A DNA stretch of 36,248 nt from the IMG/VR virus record IMGVR_UViG_2778261316_000009; one strand, 5' to 3'. Position 1 is the stretch's first letter, and each line of letters opens with the position of its first letter. Below the pieces are notes generated by a model. That model was given only the letters and a program-made list of their open reading frames with translations. It had not been told where the DNA came from and did no database searches. The DNA is from a virus (lineage: Duplodnaviria; Heunggongvirae; Uroviricota; Caudoviricetes). Positions 3,218 to 9,154 of this stretch are shown here, in pieces. A program made the translations under genes and the position numbers.

Positions 3218-3768
3218 CACTTCACCTCCTGCGGCGGTTCCGGTAGCGGCATCCAGTGAGTTGCTTGCTCAATACCATTACCCGGCTTAATCGTTGCATC
3301 TCCGCGCCGAAAGGTGCTTCCGGTATAGCGTGCGGAGCATATTAGCGGTTCAACCAGAGAGCTATCGAAATTCACCGAAATAAGCACGTTCTGGCCCTTT
3401 TCAGGCATTCGATCACTACAGCTTATCCAACCATCCGGAATCACCGGAGAGTTGCCAGCCTGAAGTATGGCGGCATCGTATGGCTCTTCATCGAGATCAA
3501 TTGGCGAGTCGCATTTCGGGCAATAACCATCACAGTCACCTACTGCGGAAACTTCAATAACCTCTCTGCATGACCAGCACTGAACGGTAGGAACATAAAG
3601 CTCCGCATTAAACGCAGCAATAGCCTTATCAATCACCTTGACAGCATCAGCCATTGCGTAGCCGAGATTACCGCCGTCGCTTTGTGCTGCTGCTTTGCTG
3701 AGTACTTCGCGTATCTGGTGCAGGCGATCTATTGATACAGGACCGTGCGCCGGGTGGTTAGTTGTCAT
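3217..3768 (-). CDS. DUF551 domain phage protein
   Basis: C-terminal DRMPEKGQNVL ... THWMPLPEPP pattern typical of DUF551; ATGA overlap with the upstream gene. Confidence 0.6.
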   Translation of the reverse strand: MTTNHPAHGPVSIDRLHQIREVLSKAAAQSDGGNLGYAMADAVKVIDKAIAAFNAELYVPTVQCWSCREVIEVSAVGDCDGYCPKCDSPIDLDEEPYDAAILQAGNSPVIPDGWISCSDRMPEKGQNVLISVNFDSSLVEPLICSARYTGSTFRRGDATIKPGNGIEQATHWMPLPEPPQEVK

Positions 3769-4596: not shown

Positions 4597-5249
4597 TGGG
4601 CGGCCTCCTGGCGGTCTATGCGTTCAATTTCGGCCAGAATAAGTGCGCCAGCTTTCACCATGTCACGGCGTGGATTTGTCGGCTTCCACCATTCTGGTGT
4701 CCACGGCCAGTCAAATGGAATGCGGTTAAATGGATGGATGGCATTCAGTACGTAGCATGAGGATGCCCACAGTAACTGCGATTTGCTGTACTGGTCATCA
4801 TGCTCAGGCGTCCATCCCTCAACTGATTGATGGCGTTGACGCTCTGCAATTACTGACTGAACGGCATTGGATAGCGATTTCACACCCTGCGCACGCACTT
4901 CAGCCAGGATTGCGTCGGTGGCTGGGGTTTCACAGTAAGCAACACGCAAATTAGGCATGCACTTATCCATCATCTGCTCCATTTCGCCAGGCTCAGCAGC
5001 AGCCCAATGAGCCAATGTTTCTTTCGCTGCCGCCTTCAGCCCCGCATTCTCCACAGCCAGCGCCGCGCACTTGGCCTCAAGGTTATCAATCGTGATTCCA
5101 GCAGAACGACACTCCCGCAACGCCGTTTCTAGTTTTGATTCAAGTTCACCGAACTTACGGACAAGATATTCAGCGTTTGTTTCATTCACTTTCAGATCTC
5201 GTGGTACACATTTCCCGCGAAGAAACCCTTCCATTTCGAAAACATTCAT
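4593..5249 (-). CDS. phage protein with a DUF550-like C-terminal domain (Ea22/ead-like)
   Basis: C-terminal GWTPEHDDQY ... WPWTPEWWKP ... VKAGALILAEIERIDR pattern; start placed at the third Met for ATGA coupling with the HD gene stop. Confidence 0.5.
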   Translation of the reverse strand: MNVFEMEGFLRGKCVPRDLKVNETNAEYLVRKFGELESKLETALRECRSAGITIDNLEAKCAALAVENAGLKAAAKETLAHWAAAEPGEMEQMMDKCMPNLRVAYCETPATDAILAEVRAQGVKSLSNAVQSVIAERQRHQSVEGWTPEHDDQYSKSQLLWASSCYVLNAIHPFNRIPFDWPWTPEWWKPTNPRRDMVKAGALILAEIERIDRQEAAQ

Positions 5250-5782
5250 GCGCATTTGCGTAACTCCGATAACTCGTTAAAACGTTCCATAAACATCCCG
5301 TAGGCATGGCCCGGTGCCAGTGGAATCACGTTGAACATCTCAGTTGCCGGGATACCTTCCAGTACAGGCCAGAAAGAGCCATCATCAAGCCCGAGATCGC
5401 GGCGTTCGGTTGCCAGCATAATGAGATCGGCATATTTCACTGGCGTGCTCATAACAGGAGGTAACCCGTATTTCTCACGTATTACGGCGTCTATTTTTTC
5501 TTCCATCCGTTTATAGTCAGGAAGAAGTCGTTTCAGTGGTGCGGGGATGTCCTGGCAATATGCTTCTGTTGCATCATGCATTAAAGCTTCAAAAGCAAAT
5601 TCCTGTGGCACCAGCTGGCTGCAAAGCACCGCATGTTGGGCGACACTGTAGAAGTGTGAAAGATGTCCTGCAAAGCGACAGATATTTGAAAGGGAAACCG
5701 CGATATCGTTAATAACGATGTCGTCTTTATTTATCCTGTCATAATAAAAATGCTTCCCGGAAAAAGTTTTAATAAATGACAT
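5246..5782 (-). CDS. HD-domain phosphohydrolase
   Basis: His/Asp motifs (HSVAQHA ... HDATEAY); start at MSFIKTF with GGAGAA RBS, the upstream Met at 5809 lacks an RBS. Confidence 0.65.
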   Translation of the reverse strand: MSFIKTFSGKHFYYDRINKDDIVINDIAVSLSNICRFAGHLSHFYSVAQHAVLCSQLVPQEFAFEALMHDATEAYCQDIPAPLKRLLPDYKRMEEKIDAVIREKYGLPPVMSTPVKYADLIMLATERRDLGLDDGSFWPVLEGIPATEMFNVIPLAPGHAYGMFMERFNELSELRKCA

Positions 5783-5825
5783 TTTGTTCTCCACGTATAT
5801 GCGCTGCACCGCGCTGAATTCGGGT

Positions 5826-6166
5826 AAAAGGAAGCCCTCACCGTCCGGCGATTATTGAGTCAATTACATTTCCATAAATGCCCCCGTAGGGGCGGTTAGT
5901 TTCTCCACAAAACAGAGAAGAACACCTGCGGTGGCAGCCGCCCGGATGGATTGGGTTATGAGCCCGTCGTCCGGTGATGCTCTTCTCTGTTTTGTAAAAA
6001 GGACGGTACCAGCCGGAAGCAAGGGTACAAGCTGGTACCGCCAAGACTACACACAGCATAAAGTTGTGGTGCCGGGTGCCTCCCGGTGCCTGGCGAAGGT
6101 TGCACACCAGGCGGGTGGGTATCCACAGAAGGTCGACTATCAGCCTCAACCTTAACCCGCGTGCGC
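5826..6166. other. GC-rich, highly structured non-coding element (candidate ncRNA or miniature palindromic insertion)
   Basis: no credible ORF (overlapping Arg/Pro/Gly-rich frames on both strands); 15-bp perfect inverted repeat 5907-5921 / 5981-5995 plus at least four further hairpins (5880-5893, 6005-6039, 6072-6086, 6088-6112). Confidence 0.35.
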
Positions 6167-6172
6167 TGAGCC

Positions 6173-6262
6173 GCATTCACCACAACGCTAAGGATTCTCT
6201 CTGGTTGAAAATACTTAGCTGTTATGTGCCTGTCTTTTCACCACTTCAGGCTCGGTGGTATC
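6173..6262. repeat. repeat B copy 1 (90 bp), identical to 6828-6917 as read
   Basis: direct comparison of the two stretches in the sequence. Confidence 0.8.
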
Positions 6263-6295
6263 CTTTTAAGCCCGTATACATAAAAGGAAAATCAA

Positions 6296-6541
6296 ATGAC
6301 TTTTGATGAAAAAGAACTTGATAATGCAATTAATAAAATCATCGTAACGTCGCTCTTTTCCTGTCTCAGCGACACTCAGCAGAAACAGTTCTACGAATCG
6401 GCTTTCAACATGATCGAGCGTTGTTGTTTCTGCGATGCCGACGAGTTACCTGAAAAAATCAGGAAACAGTTGGCTGATGCTCTTCGAGTGCGACTTTCTG
6501 ACCAATTTTCTGAAATGTACTCTCCGAATTTGGACAAATAG
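6296..6541 (+). CDS. small hypothetical protein (81 aa), cassette 1 plus-strand gene
   Basis: AAAAGGAAAA RBS 6 nt before the ATG; transcribed opposite to the pL operon. Confidence 0.45.
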   Translation: MTFDEKELDNAINKIIVTSLFSCLSDTQQKQFYESAFNMIERCCFCDADELPEKIRKQLADALRVRLSDQFSEMYSPNLDK

Positions 6542-6734
6542 AAAAAGGCCATTTCCATTCAGGGTCTGATGGAAAGACTTCAGCCTGTTCCAAAGCACGG
6601 TGTAAAGAGAATACAACTCCAGCCATAATCTGATGTTTCCCATTGGTCCAGCTATCGCCGCTCTGATCTACAGGAGCGGCTATGTCGTATGACCAAACGA
6701 CTTCACCACTATTGTTTAAAATCTGGACTTTCAT
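6459..6734 (-). CDS. small hypothetical protein (91 aa), cassette 1 minus-strand gene
   Basis: start MKVQILNN lies inside repeat A; converges on and overlaps the 3' end of the 6296-6541 gene. Confidence 0.4.
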   Translation of the reverse strand: MKVQILNNSGEVVWSYDIAAPVDQSGDSWTNGKHQIMAGVVFSLHRALEQAEVFPSDPEWKWPFSICPNSESTFQKIGQKVALEEHQPTVS

Positions 6735-6827
6735 TTTGTTCTTTAACCTCCAGATACGGGCGTTTAATTGCCCCGCCGAACAGCTCTTTTCCGCAATAGC
6801 TGCAATGTCTTTCGCGCATCAGCCTGC
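6693..6827. repeat. repeat A copy 1 (about 135 bp), second copy at 7321-7455, a few mismatches
   Basis: direct comparison; A copy 1 is contiguous with B copy 2. Confidence 0.8.
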
Positions 6828-6917
6828 GCATTCACCACAACGCTAAGGATTCTCTCTGGTTGAAAATACTTAGCTGTTATGTGCCTGTCTTTTCACCACT
6901 TCAGGCTCGGTGGTATC
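6828..6917. repeat. repeat B copy 2
   Basis: identical to 6173-6262 as read. Confidence 0.8.
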
Positions 6918-6951
6918 TTGGTGTTTTCATATAGCCAAGAAGGAAATAGTT

Positions 6952-7143
6952 ATGACCAAAGAAGAAAAAATTCTTTATTTATTCCAACTATCGGTTAAGA
7001 CTCACACTGCATATCAGACTGCTGCCATGACATCAGATAAAAATTACAGTACGTCAGAAAACCCGATAGACGACATAAGCAAGCTTTACGATAAGTTCGA
7101 AGCACTACTCGATAAAAAGTTTGCTGAGGCTGGGCTTGAGTGA
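6952..7143 (+). CDS. small hypothetical protein (63 aa), cassette 2 plus-strand gene
   Basis: AAGGAAA RBS before the ATG at 6952; the longer ORF from 6910 would start at a GTG inside repeat B. Confidence 0.45.
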   Translation: MTKEEKILYLFQLSVKTHTAYQTAAMTSDKNYSTSENPIDDISKLYDKFEALLDKKFAEAGLE

Positions 7144-7311
7144 TTGTTGAATAATCGACAAAACCCAACTTAAATTTTCGTCAGTGGGCTCGATGCCATG
7201 TGCGGTGAGCTCACTTTTCAAAACTCCAAGCAATTCAGAGCTGATTTTCAATATATCTGCTTGATTTCTAACTATTCCCACTTTTTCCTCCCTTGGTCTA
7301 CGCGCGGTCAT
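7105..7311 (-). CDS. small hypothetical protein, cassette 2 minus-strand gene
   Basis: 68-aa ORF; an internal GTG with GGGAGG RBS near 7282 is an alternative start; converges on the 6952-7143 gene. Confidence 0.35.
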   Translation of the reverse strand: MTARRPREEKVGIVRNQADILKISSELLGVLKSELTAHGIEPTDENLSWVLSIIQQSLKPSLSKLFIE

Positions 7312-7320
7312 GTTTTACGC

Positions 7321-7469
7321 CCAAACGACTTCACAGTTATTGTTTAAAATCTGGACTTTCATTTTGTTCTTTAACCTCCAGATACGGGCGTTTAATGGCC
7401 CCGCCGAACAGCTCTTTTCCGCAATAGCTGCAATGTCTTTCGCGCATCAGCCTGCGCATTCACCACAAC
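7321..7469. repeat. repeat A copy 2; carries a 15-codon truncated MKVQILNNNCEVVWA-stop remnant on the minus strand
   Basis: direct comparison with 6693-6840. Confidence 0.8.
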
Positions 7470-7471
7470 TC

Positions 7472-7509
7472 TAAAAACAAATGTAGGATATCCAACATGT
7501 GAGTGTCAA
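7472..7509 (-). promoter_or_regulatory. candidate pL promoter with embedded operator
   Basis: minus-strand TTGACA (7509-7504), 18-bp spacer, TACATT (7485-7480); 18-bp palindromic operators at 7481-7498 and 7516-7533. Confidence 0.55.
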
Positions 7510-7550
7510 GAGTTTATGTTGGTTATCCTACATAAAAAGATAGGCTCATA

Positions 7551-7576
7551 AAAAAACCGGGGATACCCCGGTTTTG
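7551..7576. terminator. bidirectional rho-independent terminator downstream of the repressor gene
   Basis: A6-CCGGGG-ATA-CCCCGG-T4. Confidence 0.65.
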
Positions 7577-7595: not shown

Positions 7596-8249
7596 TCAAA
7601 AATCCATTATTACTTGTTTGACAAGACCAACTATTCTGCAGTTCTCACCGCATTCAATAGTTTTATAGTTAGGATTTAGTGGGACGAGATACCTGTTCGG
7701 CCAGTCCTCAACAAATTTTTTGAGTGTCGCTTCTTGCCCACCATTGATATGGGCAACAACGATTTTTCCGTTAATACACTCTGTATCAATAATATCTGGC
7801 TCTACGATAACGATAGAACCTTCTGGTATCGATGGTGAGCCGAGGGGATTGGTCATTGAATCACCACGGACCCGTAGTGCAAATGCCATTTCTGATACAA
7901 GGGCGGTAGTATAAACCCACTCTTCAGCATCTTCTTTCCTGACACCAGGCTCCGTCATTGTCCATGAACCCGCCTGAACCCACGAGATGAGGGGGACTTT
8001 TTTAACTGCGAATATTTCAGGTTTTAGATTTATCTTTGGTTCAGGCGAGCCTTTTCCGCTAACAAGCCACAGAGGATCGCATTTAAGTGCGTTGGCTAGG
8101 GCTTGAAGGTTGGCTCCATTTGGTTGGTAGTCGTCCTTTTCCCATCCAGTAACCGTGACACGGTTCACACCAGTCAAATCAGCCAGTGCTTGTTGTGTCA
8201 GGTTCAGTTCTTTTCGCCTTTGGCGAATACGATCACTCATGTTCATCAT
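7596..8249 (-). CDS. cI-like prophage repressor (HTH plus S24 LexA-type peptidase domain)
   Basis: N-terminal HTH LTQQALADLTGVNRVTVTGWE; C-terminal VRGDSM autocleavage-domain motif; flanked by operator palindromes. Confidence 0.85.
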   Translation of the reverse strand: MMNMSDRIRQRRKELNLTQQALADLTGVNRVTVTGWEKDDYQPNGANLQALANALKCDPLWLVSGKGSPEPKINLKPEIFAVKKVPLISWVQAGSWTMTEPGVRKEDAEEWVYTTALVSEMAFALRVRGDSMTNPLGSPSIPEGSIVIVEPDIIDTECINGKIVVAHINGGQEATLKKFVEDWPNRYLVPLNPNYKTIECGENCRIVGLVKQVIMDF

Positions 8250-8313
8250 GTAGGCAATCCTACCACATGCCCATGTAGGATTCTTGACATTGGTATGTTG
8301 GATATCCTACATT
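8248..8313 (+). promoter_or_regulatory. OR region: operators plus candidate pR, with a pRM-like arrangement abutting the repressor start
   Basis: sites ATGTAGGATTCTTGACAT (8273-8290) and ATGTTGGATATCCTACAT (8295-8312), degenerate site 8248-8268; TTGACA 8284-8289, 18-bp spacer, TACATT 8308-8313. Confidence 0.55.
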
Positions 8314-8344
8314 TCTGCTTAACGTAATTTAACGGGAGACAGAA

Positions 8345-8542
8345 ATGCGGAAATCCGACGTGATTAATTATTTCGGCGGAGTTTGTAAAACCGCCGAAGC
8401 CCTAGGTATTAAGCATCCGTCTGTTTCAGAGTGGCCTGAGATTATTCCTGAAGGCCGAGCGTACCAGTTAGAAAAAATTACTAACGGGAAACTGAAAGTT
8501 GACGTGTCTTTATATCAAAAGACTAACAGTGCTGCGGCATAA
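8345..8542 (+). CDS. Cro-like DNA-binding regulator
   Basis: 65-aa protein divergent from the repressor, GGGAGA RBS, downstream of pR. Confidence 0.7.
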   Translation: MRKSDVINYFGGVCKTAEALGIKHPSVSEWPEIIPEGRAYQLEKITNGKLKVDVSLYQKTNSAAA

Positions 8543-8569: not shown

Positions 8570-9154
8570 GTGGGTAAAGAACCTGAATGGAAAGTTGATA
8601 AACAACCAGCATGGCTGGTGGCAGCAATACGAAGAACGATTGCTGATTTACCTCATGGCTATGAGGAAGCAGCAGAAATTCTTGGTTTGTATAAATCTGA
8701 TGATATCACCCCAGCAAAAGATCAATTGCATAACAGACTGCGTAGCGGTGGGGATCAAATTTTTCCACTTGAGTGGGCCATGGTTTTACAGGATGCCAGT
8801 GGTACCAGGCATGTAACAGATGCAATAGCCCGTCGTAGTAATGGGGTGTTTGTGCCGCTGGTGGTCATTGATGACATTGACAATGGTGACATTAATCAGC
8901 GGCTGATGGAGTCAATAGAATGGATTGGCAAGCATTCCCAGTACTTACGCAAGGCAACTGCTGATGGAGTTATTGACCAAGCTGAGCGTGAGCAAATCGA
9001 AGAGAACAGCTACCAAGTAATGGCGAAGTGGCAGGAGCATTTAACACTGTTATTTCGTGTTTTTTGTGCGCCGGAAAAGAGTAACGCCCGCGAGTGTGCA
9101 GCTCCGGGCGTCGTGGCGTCGATTGCTTCTGGTTGTGGAGAAACTAACGCATGA
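8570..9154 (+). CDS. phage regulatory protein, CII-like / YmfL-like
   Basis: 194-aa ORF, GTG start with GAGGAA RBS; position after cro and size match the e14 ymfL slot; assignment from recall. Confidence 0.45.

Follow-up and report, generated by a model that had tools for sequence, protein, structure and literature searches.

Two tandem convergent gene pairs in the pL-proximal slot of an e14/SfV-type lambdoid prophage, and a portable core element that probably closes pL-strand RNA

The DNA considered here is a stretch of 36,248 nucleotides (nt), called the window, from a virus of the Caudoviricetes (IMG/VR record IMGVR_UViG_2778261316_000009). Between positions 6172 and 7474 it holds two tandem cassettes of small convergent genes, bounded by two kinds of repeat, A and B. 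The locus raises the question of why two such gene pairs stand side by side and what the repeats do. The phage group of the window is that of the SfV, SfII, SKA5 and e14 lambdoid phages, and the cassettes occupy the pL-proximal slot for accessory genes of an e14/SfV-type prophage, where two convergent pairs stand in place of the usual one. The explanation that best accounts for the data as a whole, and that is probably correct, is that a conserved core in repeat B closes RNA read from the promoter pL, that the two genes of each pair are expressed as an excludon, and that the tandem arose by a single crossover.

Each cassette has one small gene on either strand. In cassette 1 these are a plus-strand gene of 81 amino acids (aa) at 6296–6541 (phrog_3311), read against pL, and a minus-strand gene of 91 aa at 6459–6734 (phrog_3195), which is equivalent to SfV orf33 and is read in the pL sense. 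Cassette 2 has a plus-strand gene of 63 aa (6952–7143, phrog_2605) and a minus-strand gene of 58 aa (7105–7281, from GTG at 7281); the full open reading frame (ORF) of the latter, 7105–7311, extends back to an ATG at 7311 and would give 68 aa. The ORF list bears out the convergence and 3' overlap described in the initial annotation, with overlaps of 83 nt in cassette 1 and 39 nt in cassette 2. The direction of pL, also proposed there, agrees with the sequence. The promoter is TTGACA-18-TACATT on the minus strand, reading leftward from 7509 to 7480 (-35 at 7509, -10 ending at 7480), and lies with the OL operators within 7472–7533. It is placed here on the basis of the positions of the repressor and cro genes and of a 40-nt OL/OR inverted repeat (7472–7511 and 8282–8321) that carries two TTGACA-18-TACATT promoters. 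The cI-like repressor gene is at 7596–8249 on the minus strand (ORF list and family scan) and cro is at 8345–8542 on the plus strand. Both plus-strand small genes are therefore oriented against pL.

All four small genes look real, judged by their substitution patterns, which are of the coding type. Differences at codon positions 1/2/3 were counted in the non-overlapping gene parts against diverged copies. The 81-aa gene gives 15/4/30 against a copy with 69% identity (locus L067), and the 91-aa gene gives 6/6/16 against the copy at that locus. Compared with four cassette-2 copies at 74–85% identity, the 63-aa gene gives 6/4/24, 9/3/27, 8/2/26 and 3/0/16, and the 58-aa gene gives 7/8/19, 13/8/19, 12/8/18 and 5/4/17. 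The first ~65 aa of the 91-aa protein are conserved. Among its homologues, which range down to 57% identity, the C-terminal tail encoded in the overlap varies or is frameshifted. The 39-nt overlap of cassette 2 is retained in all diverged copies and shows unusual conservation. Homologues of the cassette-2 minus gene have 58–59 aa, and the most likely start is the GTG at 7281, behind a GGGAGG Shine-Dalgarno sequence.

The two repeats are real and their length and identity are far beyond chance. Repeat B (6172–6262 and 6827–6917) is 91 nt with 100% identity between copies. Repeat A is longer than the 6693–6827 and 7321–7455 first assigned to it: its copies at 6676–6846 and 7304–7474 are 171 nt with 94% identity. 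At 6827–6846, 20 nt belong both to the end of A and to the start of B. Copy 1 of A is internal, with no adjoining promoter or operator; copy 2 is directly downstream of pL and forms a transcribed leader. Repeat B is a composite. Its left 45 nt (6172–6216) are the 5' end of a small RNA (sRNA) discussed below, and copy 2 of B passes into repeat A after these 45 nt, which are all that it has of the sRNA. The right part of B consists of a 34-nt core, GCCTGTCTTTTCACCACTTCAGGCTCGGTGGTAT, with a hairpin, termed hairpin 2, behind it. The core copies are at 6228–6261 and 6883–6916, each with a pseudoknot reading on the minus strand. The initial annotation had tied its interpretation to the presence of the repeats in homologous phages, and the sequence of repeat B is indeed present in SfV, SfII, SKA5 and the e14 prophage of K-12.

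Comparison with relatives supports the view of a modular, swappable slot. SfV and SKA5 have cassette 1 alone between the same boundaries; SfII has cassette 2 alone. The modular slot proposed in the initial annotation is thus well supported. The core was found 129 times in the fetched loci, mostly IMG/VR contigs, with cassette 1 in more than 50 instances and cassette 2 in about 15. It precedes at least 17 unrelated small plus-strand genes, the left flank is unrelated between contexts, and in most contexts examined a convergent pair with an overlap of 4–167 nt is found behind it. One genome per species was scanned, and the core does not differ between Escherichia, Klebsiella, Salmonella, Enterobacter, Shimwellia and Edwardsiella. 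Some part of 5810–7480 (sRNA region, B or a cassette) has a match in 2,902 of 5,426 complete E. coli genomes. Other tandem cassettes are present in the slot at loci L145 and L023, with a core of its own for each plus gene. One of these, at 1276–2400 of L145 (reverse strand), is a 69-aa zinc-ribbon gene on the plus strand that converges on a 108-aa minus-strand gene and adjoins a 63/58-aa pair.

The core read on the pL strand, ACCAC-CGA-GCCUG-AA-GUGGU-GAAAAGA-CAGGC, would fold as an H-type pseudoknot with loops of 3, 2 and 7 nt, the last of which is A-rich. Where the core has diverged, the substitutions are confined to loops or to the ends of stem 2, and stem 1 is unchanged. In a search for stem-1 covariation, three scans of 2.9 million viral contigs for non-canonical bases at positions 14, 15 and 16 found no variant, and the scan of one genome per species gave canonical stems only. 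The core of Rac has a stem 2 of GCCCGG/CCGGGC, which represents a compensated change from U-A to C-G plus one extra pair, and it keeps stem 1 and the A-rich loop. A recurrent variant of the Rac type, GCCCAG, would form a G·U pair on the minus strand only. Hairpin 2 is formed by TCCTTTTA and TAAAAGGA in cassette 1 (6261–6288), where the 3' arm reaches the Shine-Dalgarno sequence of the plus gene, and, by comparison of the arm pairs, by TCTTGG and CCAAGA in cassette 2 (6916–6940). This hairpin covaries extensively: 44 unique contexts have 22 distinct, perfectly complementary arm pairs, with 276 Watson-Crick, 6 G-T and 4 A-C pairs. The core has no Rfam match and a search of the literature with its sequence in all four orientations gave no match; it appears to be undescribed as an element. 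LexA, CRP and DnaA boxes in the core, and a sigma-54 promoter, were considered and rejected, as the sequence does not agree with their consensus.

Mapped RNA ends from K-12 coincide with this structure. Term-seq data from uninduced cells place minus-strand 3' ends at 1201423 in e14 (...CAGGCAC) and at 1418562 in Rac (...CCGGGCACA) (Adams et al. 2021, PMC7815308). Both ends fall 2–3 nt past the pseudoknot. In the table of that study the e14 end has a "No" in what is presumed to be the Rho column and a low value in what is presumed to be the intrinsic-terminator score. A further e14 3' end, 1201195, corresponds to the terminator of the sRNA (PMC7815308), and the arrangement in the window is identical. 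By homology, minus-strand RNA 3' ends are expected in the window at ~6226 and ~6881. The 3' end at the core could come from processing or from termination.

There is also evidence for transcription in the other direction. In e14 a plus-strand 3' end is mapped at 1201911 and a Rho termination region at 1202011, both inside ymfJ (PMC7815308); on this indirect evidence ymfI, the e14 gene in the position of the plus gene, is probably transcribed in uninduced K-12. The pairs ymfI-ymfJ and sieB-ydaF are in a list of convergent excludons obtained from RNA-seq (ExcludonFinder, PMC12288877). This listing of homologous loci, together with the ORF overlaps of 83 and 39 nt, suggests that the pairs in the window also have overlapping convergent transcripts. 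Induction of ymfJ in the SOS response is late and is seen in both mRNA and protein; the gene rises by ~4.8 log2 and ymfI is little changed, which is no more than suggestive of mutually exclusive expression. A candidate plus-strand promoter is TGgTATnCT, an extended -10 situated partly in the core and partly in the 5' arm of hairpin 2. Positions A2 and T6 of this site are conserved in almost every one of the 44 contexts, and in L145 the site is retained despite a 2-nt shift. This promoter is put forward as an inference only, since it is missing in K-12 Rac and is below the threshold of the promoter scan. The initial annotation viewed the repeats as promoter-bearing boundary sequences. One part of that description may hold, in that the right part of B may carry the plus promoter; the left part of B is an sRNA 5' end, the right part of A is a homologue of an sRNA 5' domain, and the right part of B is best supported as a pL-strand RNA 3'-end element.

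These observations suggest the following mechanism. Each cassette would supply one small protein gene read from pL and one read against it, with overlapping 3' ends. The right third of repeat B, consisting of the portable, nearly invariant 34-bp core and the covarying hairpin, would precede each plus gene. In pL-strand RNA the two would fold as a hairpin and an H-type pseudoknot with an A-rich third loop, and the pL-sense RNA would end 2–3 nt past this structure. The mRNA of the first pL gene would therefore be closed at that point, with a long 3' part antisense to the plus gene, and would be separated by the core structure from the STnc100/DicF-like sRNA that starts just downstream, in the left part of B. 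Weak transcription of the plus gene would take place in the lysogen, likely from the extended -10 overlapping the core, with Rho ending the transcript within the minus gene. Once the prophage is induced, transcription from pL would read the minus genes and produce RNA antisense to the plus genes, so that the two exclude each other in the manner of an excludon. The tandem would derive from a single unequal crossover of two single-cassette phages in GCATTCACCACAAC, which is common to the left part of B and the right part of A. A wider proposal is offered tentatively: that the core with its covarying hairpin is a pseudoknot which has no U-tract, sets RNA 3' ends or shields them, and acts as punctuation in the pL transcripts of numerous enterobacterial prophages, that it is sited where DicF/STnc100-type sRNAs are released, that the same DNA holds the promoter of an antisense gene expressed in the lysogen, and that the convergent pairs are effector/counter-effector modules swapped as wholes.

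Several points weigh against this mechanism. The pseudoknot is based on one class of compensating change and on the pattern of invariance, not on broad covariation. A few changes at the stem-2 ends are uncompensated, and one substitution, C20 to T, speaks for the plus strand. The G-T and A-C counts in hairpin 2 (6 vs 4) leave its strand undecided. All of the RNA evidence is from K-12, namely from e14 with its identical B and from Rac with its diverged core, and it may be a short antisense transcript, and not the pL mRNA, that ends at the core. The plus promoter has been read from the consensus only, with 4+4 of 12 positions plus the TG (under the scan threshold); the consensus promoter scan gave no site in repeat B, TGgTATnCT is absent from K-12 Rac, and in published reporter assays the sequence upstream of "ymfH" had little promoter activity. 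Transcription starts for the e14 locus have no entry in the ROSE, Cappable-seq and SMRT-Cappable-seq supplements. Lastly, no match in Pfam, PHROGs, NCBIfam or PADLOC gives a function to any of the four proteins.

The last point bears on an explanation that is compatible with the preferred one and concerns the proteins. The convergent pair may be a two-protein module in which a lysogen-made plus product, with an exclusion, defence or host-modulating role comparable to SieB, is neutralised by the induced first pL product, which would be antitoxin- or Esc-like. The co-inheritance of the pairs agrees with this. The 63-aa and 58-aa genes occur together, with the fixed 39-nt overlap, in five lineages at 64–85% identity; YmfI-like and YmfJ-like proteins are paired in both E. 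coli and Edwardsiella, the 81-aa and 91-aa genes are paired in L067, and the known exclusion gene sieB has the same position and orientation in Rac. This co-inheritance could also stem from the absence of a recombination point inside the cassette, and some contexts, such as L035, are without a credible minus-strand partner. A toxin, antitoxin or defence match for the four proteins was not found in Pfam, NCBIfam, PADLOC or the functional categories of PHROGs. The 58-aa protein is predicted by AlphaFold2 to form a generic helical hairpin (predicted local distance difference test, pLDDT, 73), and a fold search with this model gave no PDB match better than E = 2. The model of the 91-aa protein is unreliable (pLDDT 48) and too poor for a fold search. 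The toxin/antitoxin-like or exclusion role suggested in the initial annotation is thus unsupported by Pfam, NCBIfam, PADLOC or fold search. In view of sieB in the same Rac position and of the co-inherited pairs, an effector/counter-effector reading is conceivable; the two-protein module as specified above is doubtful.

A second alternative places the function of the core and hairpin 2 on the plus strand, as a 5' leader RNA that controls translation of the plus gene, i.e., a riboregulator or an operator bound by a protein or an sRNA. The fixed distance of the core to the Shine-Dalgarno sequence and ATG is consistent with such a leader, as is the 3' arm of hairpin 2, which abuts or includes the Shine-Dalgarno sequence. 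In addition, UUCACCAC on the plus strand is complementary to GUGGUGAA of the sRNA. The mapped RNA ends, however, are on the minus strand, and the GCCCAG variant pairs on that strand only. A plus-strand pseudoknot would have loops of 7, 2 and 3 nt, the last judged too short for its stem, compared with 3, 2 and an A-rich 7 on the minus strand. In L137 and L023, terminator-like hairpins are found ~15–35 nt left of the core; other loci have divergent gene starts 5–20 nt left of it, so that little room remains for a promoter upstream of the core. In K-12 Rac at least ~60 nt separate the structures from the sieB start downstream, and the best -10-like site is likewise downstream of them. A plus-strand leader is accordingly considered unlikely, and a pL-strand 3'-end element is preferred.

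A third alternative, very unlikely, is that the core is a DNA mobility site, integron-like or a preferred point for short-homology crossover, and is conserved by recombination rather than expression: the same short sequence does bound many unrelated genes, the core alone is repeated in independent tandem arrays (L023, L145–147) and genes diverged to 69% identity keep an identical core, yet no dedicated recombinase travels with the core, it marks one side of the cassette only, the tandem junction of the window is in a 14-nt sRNA motif and not in the core, and homology-driven exchange leaves unexplained both the substitutions that avoid the stems and the mapped RNA ends. The cassettes also differ from integron cassettes, as the conserved element is at the 5' end of the plus gene, the junction is a 14-nt microhomology, and no integron integrase was found in the region.

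The tandem itself looks like the product of one unequal crossover, within the 14-nt motif GCATTCACCACAAC, that joined a phage with cassette 2 to one with cassette 1. As read from the sequence, this motif is at the junction of A and B (6828–6841) and also at the left end of B (6173–6186) and the pL-proximal end of A (7456–7469). The sequence GTGGTGAA has six minus-strand occurrences within 6176–7466 and ten in the whole window, compared with 1.5 expected. The initial annotation had placed a dedicated cassette boundary at the repeats, and on this point the sequence disagrees: the junction sits in the sRNA-derived motif and not at a cassette boundary. The arrangement B-cassette 1-A-B-cassette 2-A is found at ~99% identity in nine complete E. 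coli genomes, beside different immunity regions. An assembly artefact was rejected because these nine genomes share the tandem.

The left part of repeat A is made up of the Shine-Dalgarno sequence of the 91-aa gene and its first 15 codons. In the second copy these codons form a fossil of that gene's 5' end, MKVQILNNNCEVVWA followed by a stop, at 7362–7315 on the minus strand (the MKVQILNN... remnant). The 15-codon break noted in the initial annotation is therefore present, with the difference that the fossil is a fixed feature of all SfII-type phages with cassette 2, among them SfII itself, which has cassette 2 alone and already carries the remnant. A cassette-2 copy from Kluyvera is without the MKVQILNNNCEVVWA fossil and has a 59-aa gene directly after the leader. 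A 40-aa ORF in repeat A (motif CSYCGK) was considered as a ClpX-type zinc finger and rejected, as the real one (67 aa) is in a different leader module, at L004. There, at 3482–3685 on the minus strand, the first pL gene encodes a ClpX-type C4 zinc finger (CSFCG...CSEC); it is found in some tandem-bearing E. coli prophages and is absent from the window.

The sRNA that shares its 5' end with repeat B is at 5993–6216 on the minus strand. It matches the full Rfam model RF02076 (STnc100; model positions 1–206) with 44.4 bits and an E value of 6.6e-8. The gathering score of the family is 47, and at gathering thresholds Rfam has no match anywhere in the window; because of this shortfall the element is called STnc100-like and not a member of STnc100. 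Relatives also score under the threshold with this model (43.8 bits in Rac-SA53 and 35.1 bits in ST64B). The sRNA region folds better on the minus strand than on the plus strand (z -7.65 vs -4.91), and an intrinsic terminator with a DicF-like hairpin is present at ~6045–5997. The likeness to DicF (RF00039, 6001–6055 on the minus strand, 19.4 bits vs a threshold of 48) is confined to this terminator hairpin. The element resembles STnc100/PasD in its full-length structural match and in the motif UGGUGAAU, and differs in location: published copies of STnc100 are mainly near late genes, Q and stx, and the sRNA here is in the early-left operon. The DicF RNA of the Qin prophage is also excised from a pL-like operon transcript. 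Two observations concern sRNAs of other prophages. The Rac sRNA at the equivalent place (L150, K-12 Rac, 2406–2503 on the minus strand) is the published Hfq-dependent KilS. The sRNA of Rac-SA53 (L141, 1652–1706, minus strand) matches Rfam DicF with 41 bits and is beside a second STnc100-like element.

The right part of repeat A (6756–6844, with a second copy at 7384–7472, minus strand) is like the 5' domain of the sRNA, with UGGUGAAU followed by a hairpin. It is a homologue of that domain that acts here as the pL leader, an assignment made from the UGGUGAAU-plus-hairpin motif common to it and the STnc100 consensus; the 14-nt crossover motif is therefore present at both places. These 89 nt are 100% identical to a segment of mEp460 (L009, 2723–2811) that adjoins a DicF-like terminator. 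A lambda-type nut site was also considered for the leader. Reading the minus strand of A and B by eye revealed no boxA (CGCUCUUUA), and the nut site was rejected, as UGGUGAAU plus hairpin fits the 5' domain of the sRNA family instead.

A 112-aa ORF over 5838–6176 on the minus strand is annotated as a gene in relatives (SfII_35, and ymfH in K-12). It overlies the structured sRNA and matches no protein family. The ymfH and SfII_35 ORFs are probably not genes, as they read like translated non-coding sequence. A preprint reports that overexpression of "ymfH" triggers a retron toxin, and this may in fact be an effect of the RNA.

The architecture is already present in two annotated prophages of K-12. 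In e14 (xisE-"ymfH"-ymfI/ymfJ-ymfK) the early-left genes, the sRNA region (as ymfH), an identical B, a convergent plus gene, a pL leader and a cI-like repressor are all found, and ymfI on the plus strand converges on ymfJ on the minus strand with a 63-nt overlap. Unlike the window, e14 has one cassette with unrelated proteins (YmfI, YmfJ), another pL leader, and neither repeat A nor a tandem. Rac (kilR-KilS-sieB/ydaF-ydaG-racR) has the Hfq-dependent, DicF-like KilS, a core variant of the same pseudoknot topology, sieB on the plus strand converging on the first pL genes (ydaF, minus strand) and an equivalent Term-seq 3' end. It differs in stem 2 and the loops of the core, in the absence of the -10-like TATnCT, and in the ~60 nt between core and sRNA, which are reported to hold an independent KilS promoter. 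Rac-SA53 has a rac10/rac11 pair in the same layout.

The cassettes may also be compared with morons, reportedly described in lambdoid phages by Juhala and colleagues in 2000. Classical morons have their own sigma-70 promoter and an intrinsic terminator. The convergent overlapping units recall excludons (Sesto et al. 2013; ExcludonFinder, PMC12288877). An extra gene in a phage operon with its own transcription in the lysogen, and convergent overlapping units that are expected to be mutually exclusive, would be common to these classes and the cassettes. The cassettes differ from classical morons in their termination: the e14 plus transcript ends in a Rho region, and a terminator scan of the window found no factor-independent terminator after either plus gene. 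In the literature, no prior description was found of a shared, near-invariant boundary element with an RNA role on the opposite strand.

The presence of the slot in e14 and Rac of K-12 makes it directly testable in standard strains. If the core does define 3' ends without a U-tract, this would explain how sRNAs of the DicF, KilS and STnc100 type are separated from the upstream mRNA, would add a new RNA motif to the catalogues, and would provide a sequence handle on a large uncharacterised set of small prophage genes at the sieB position. Two annotations should be corrected: ymfH and SfII_35 are probably not genes, and the start of the cassette-2 minus gene is most likely the GTG at 7281.

Some further features were observed around the slot. 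A strong intrinsic terminator (ACCGGGG-TATC-CCCGGT and a T run) is at 7549–7575 on the minus strand, between the end of cI and OL; repressor transcripts should therefore not enter the pL region. The segment 5879–5995, between the sRNA terminator and a yfdR-like gene, has a long near-perfect hairpin (arms 5907–5931 and 5971–5995) and a small GC hairpin (5879–5894). It is kept at 93–95% identity in Stx2, Stx2c, mEp460 and many other phages, and its hairpins might represent an RNase III site or a second terminator. Locus L006 (ST64B) has an Rfam isrK match above threshold (64 bits) at 5232–5308 on the plus strand, right of the immunity region and unrelated to the cassettes. Finally, 47 nt at 9084–9130 on the minus strand, within the 3' end of a YmfL/cII-like gene (8570–9154), are 100% identical to K-12 sequence at a Term-seq end. 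The K-12 counterpart is a very abundant minus-strand 3' end (1203751) antisense to ymfL, and the segment looks like an OOP-type antisense RNA against the cII analogue.

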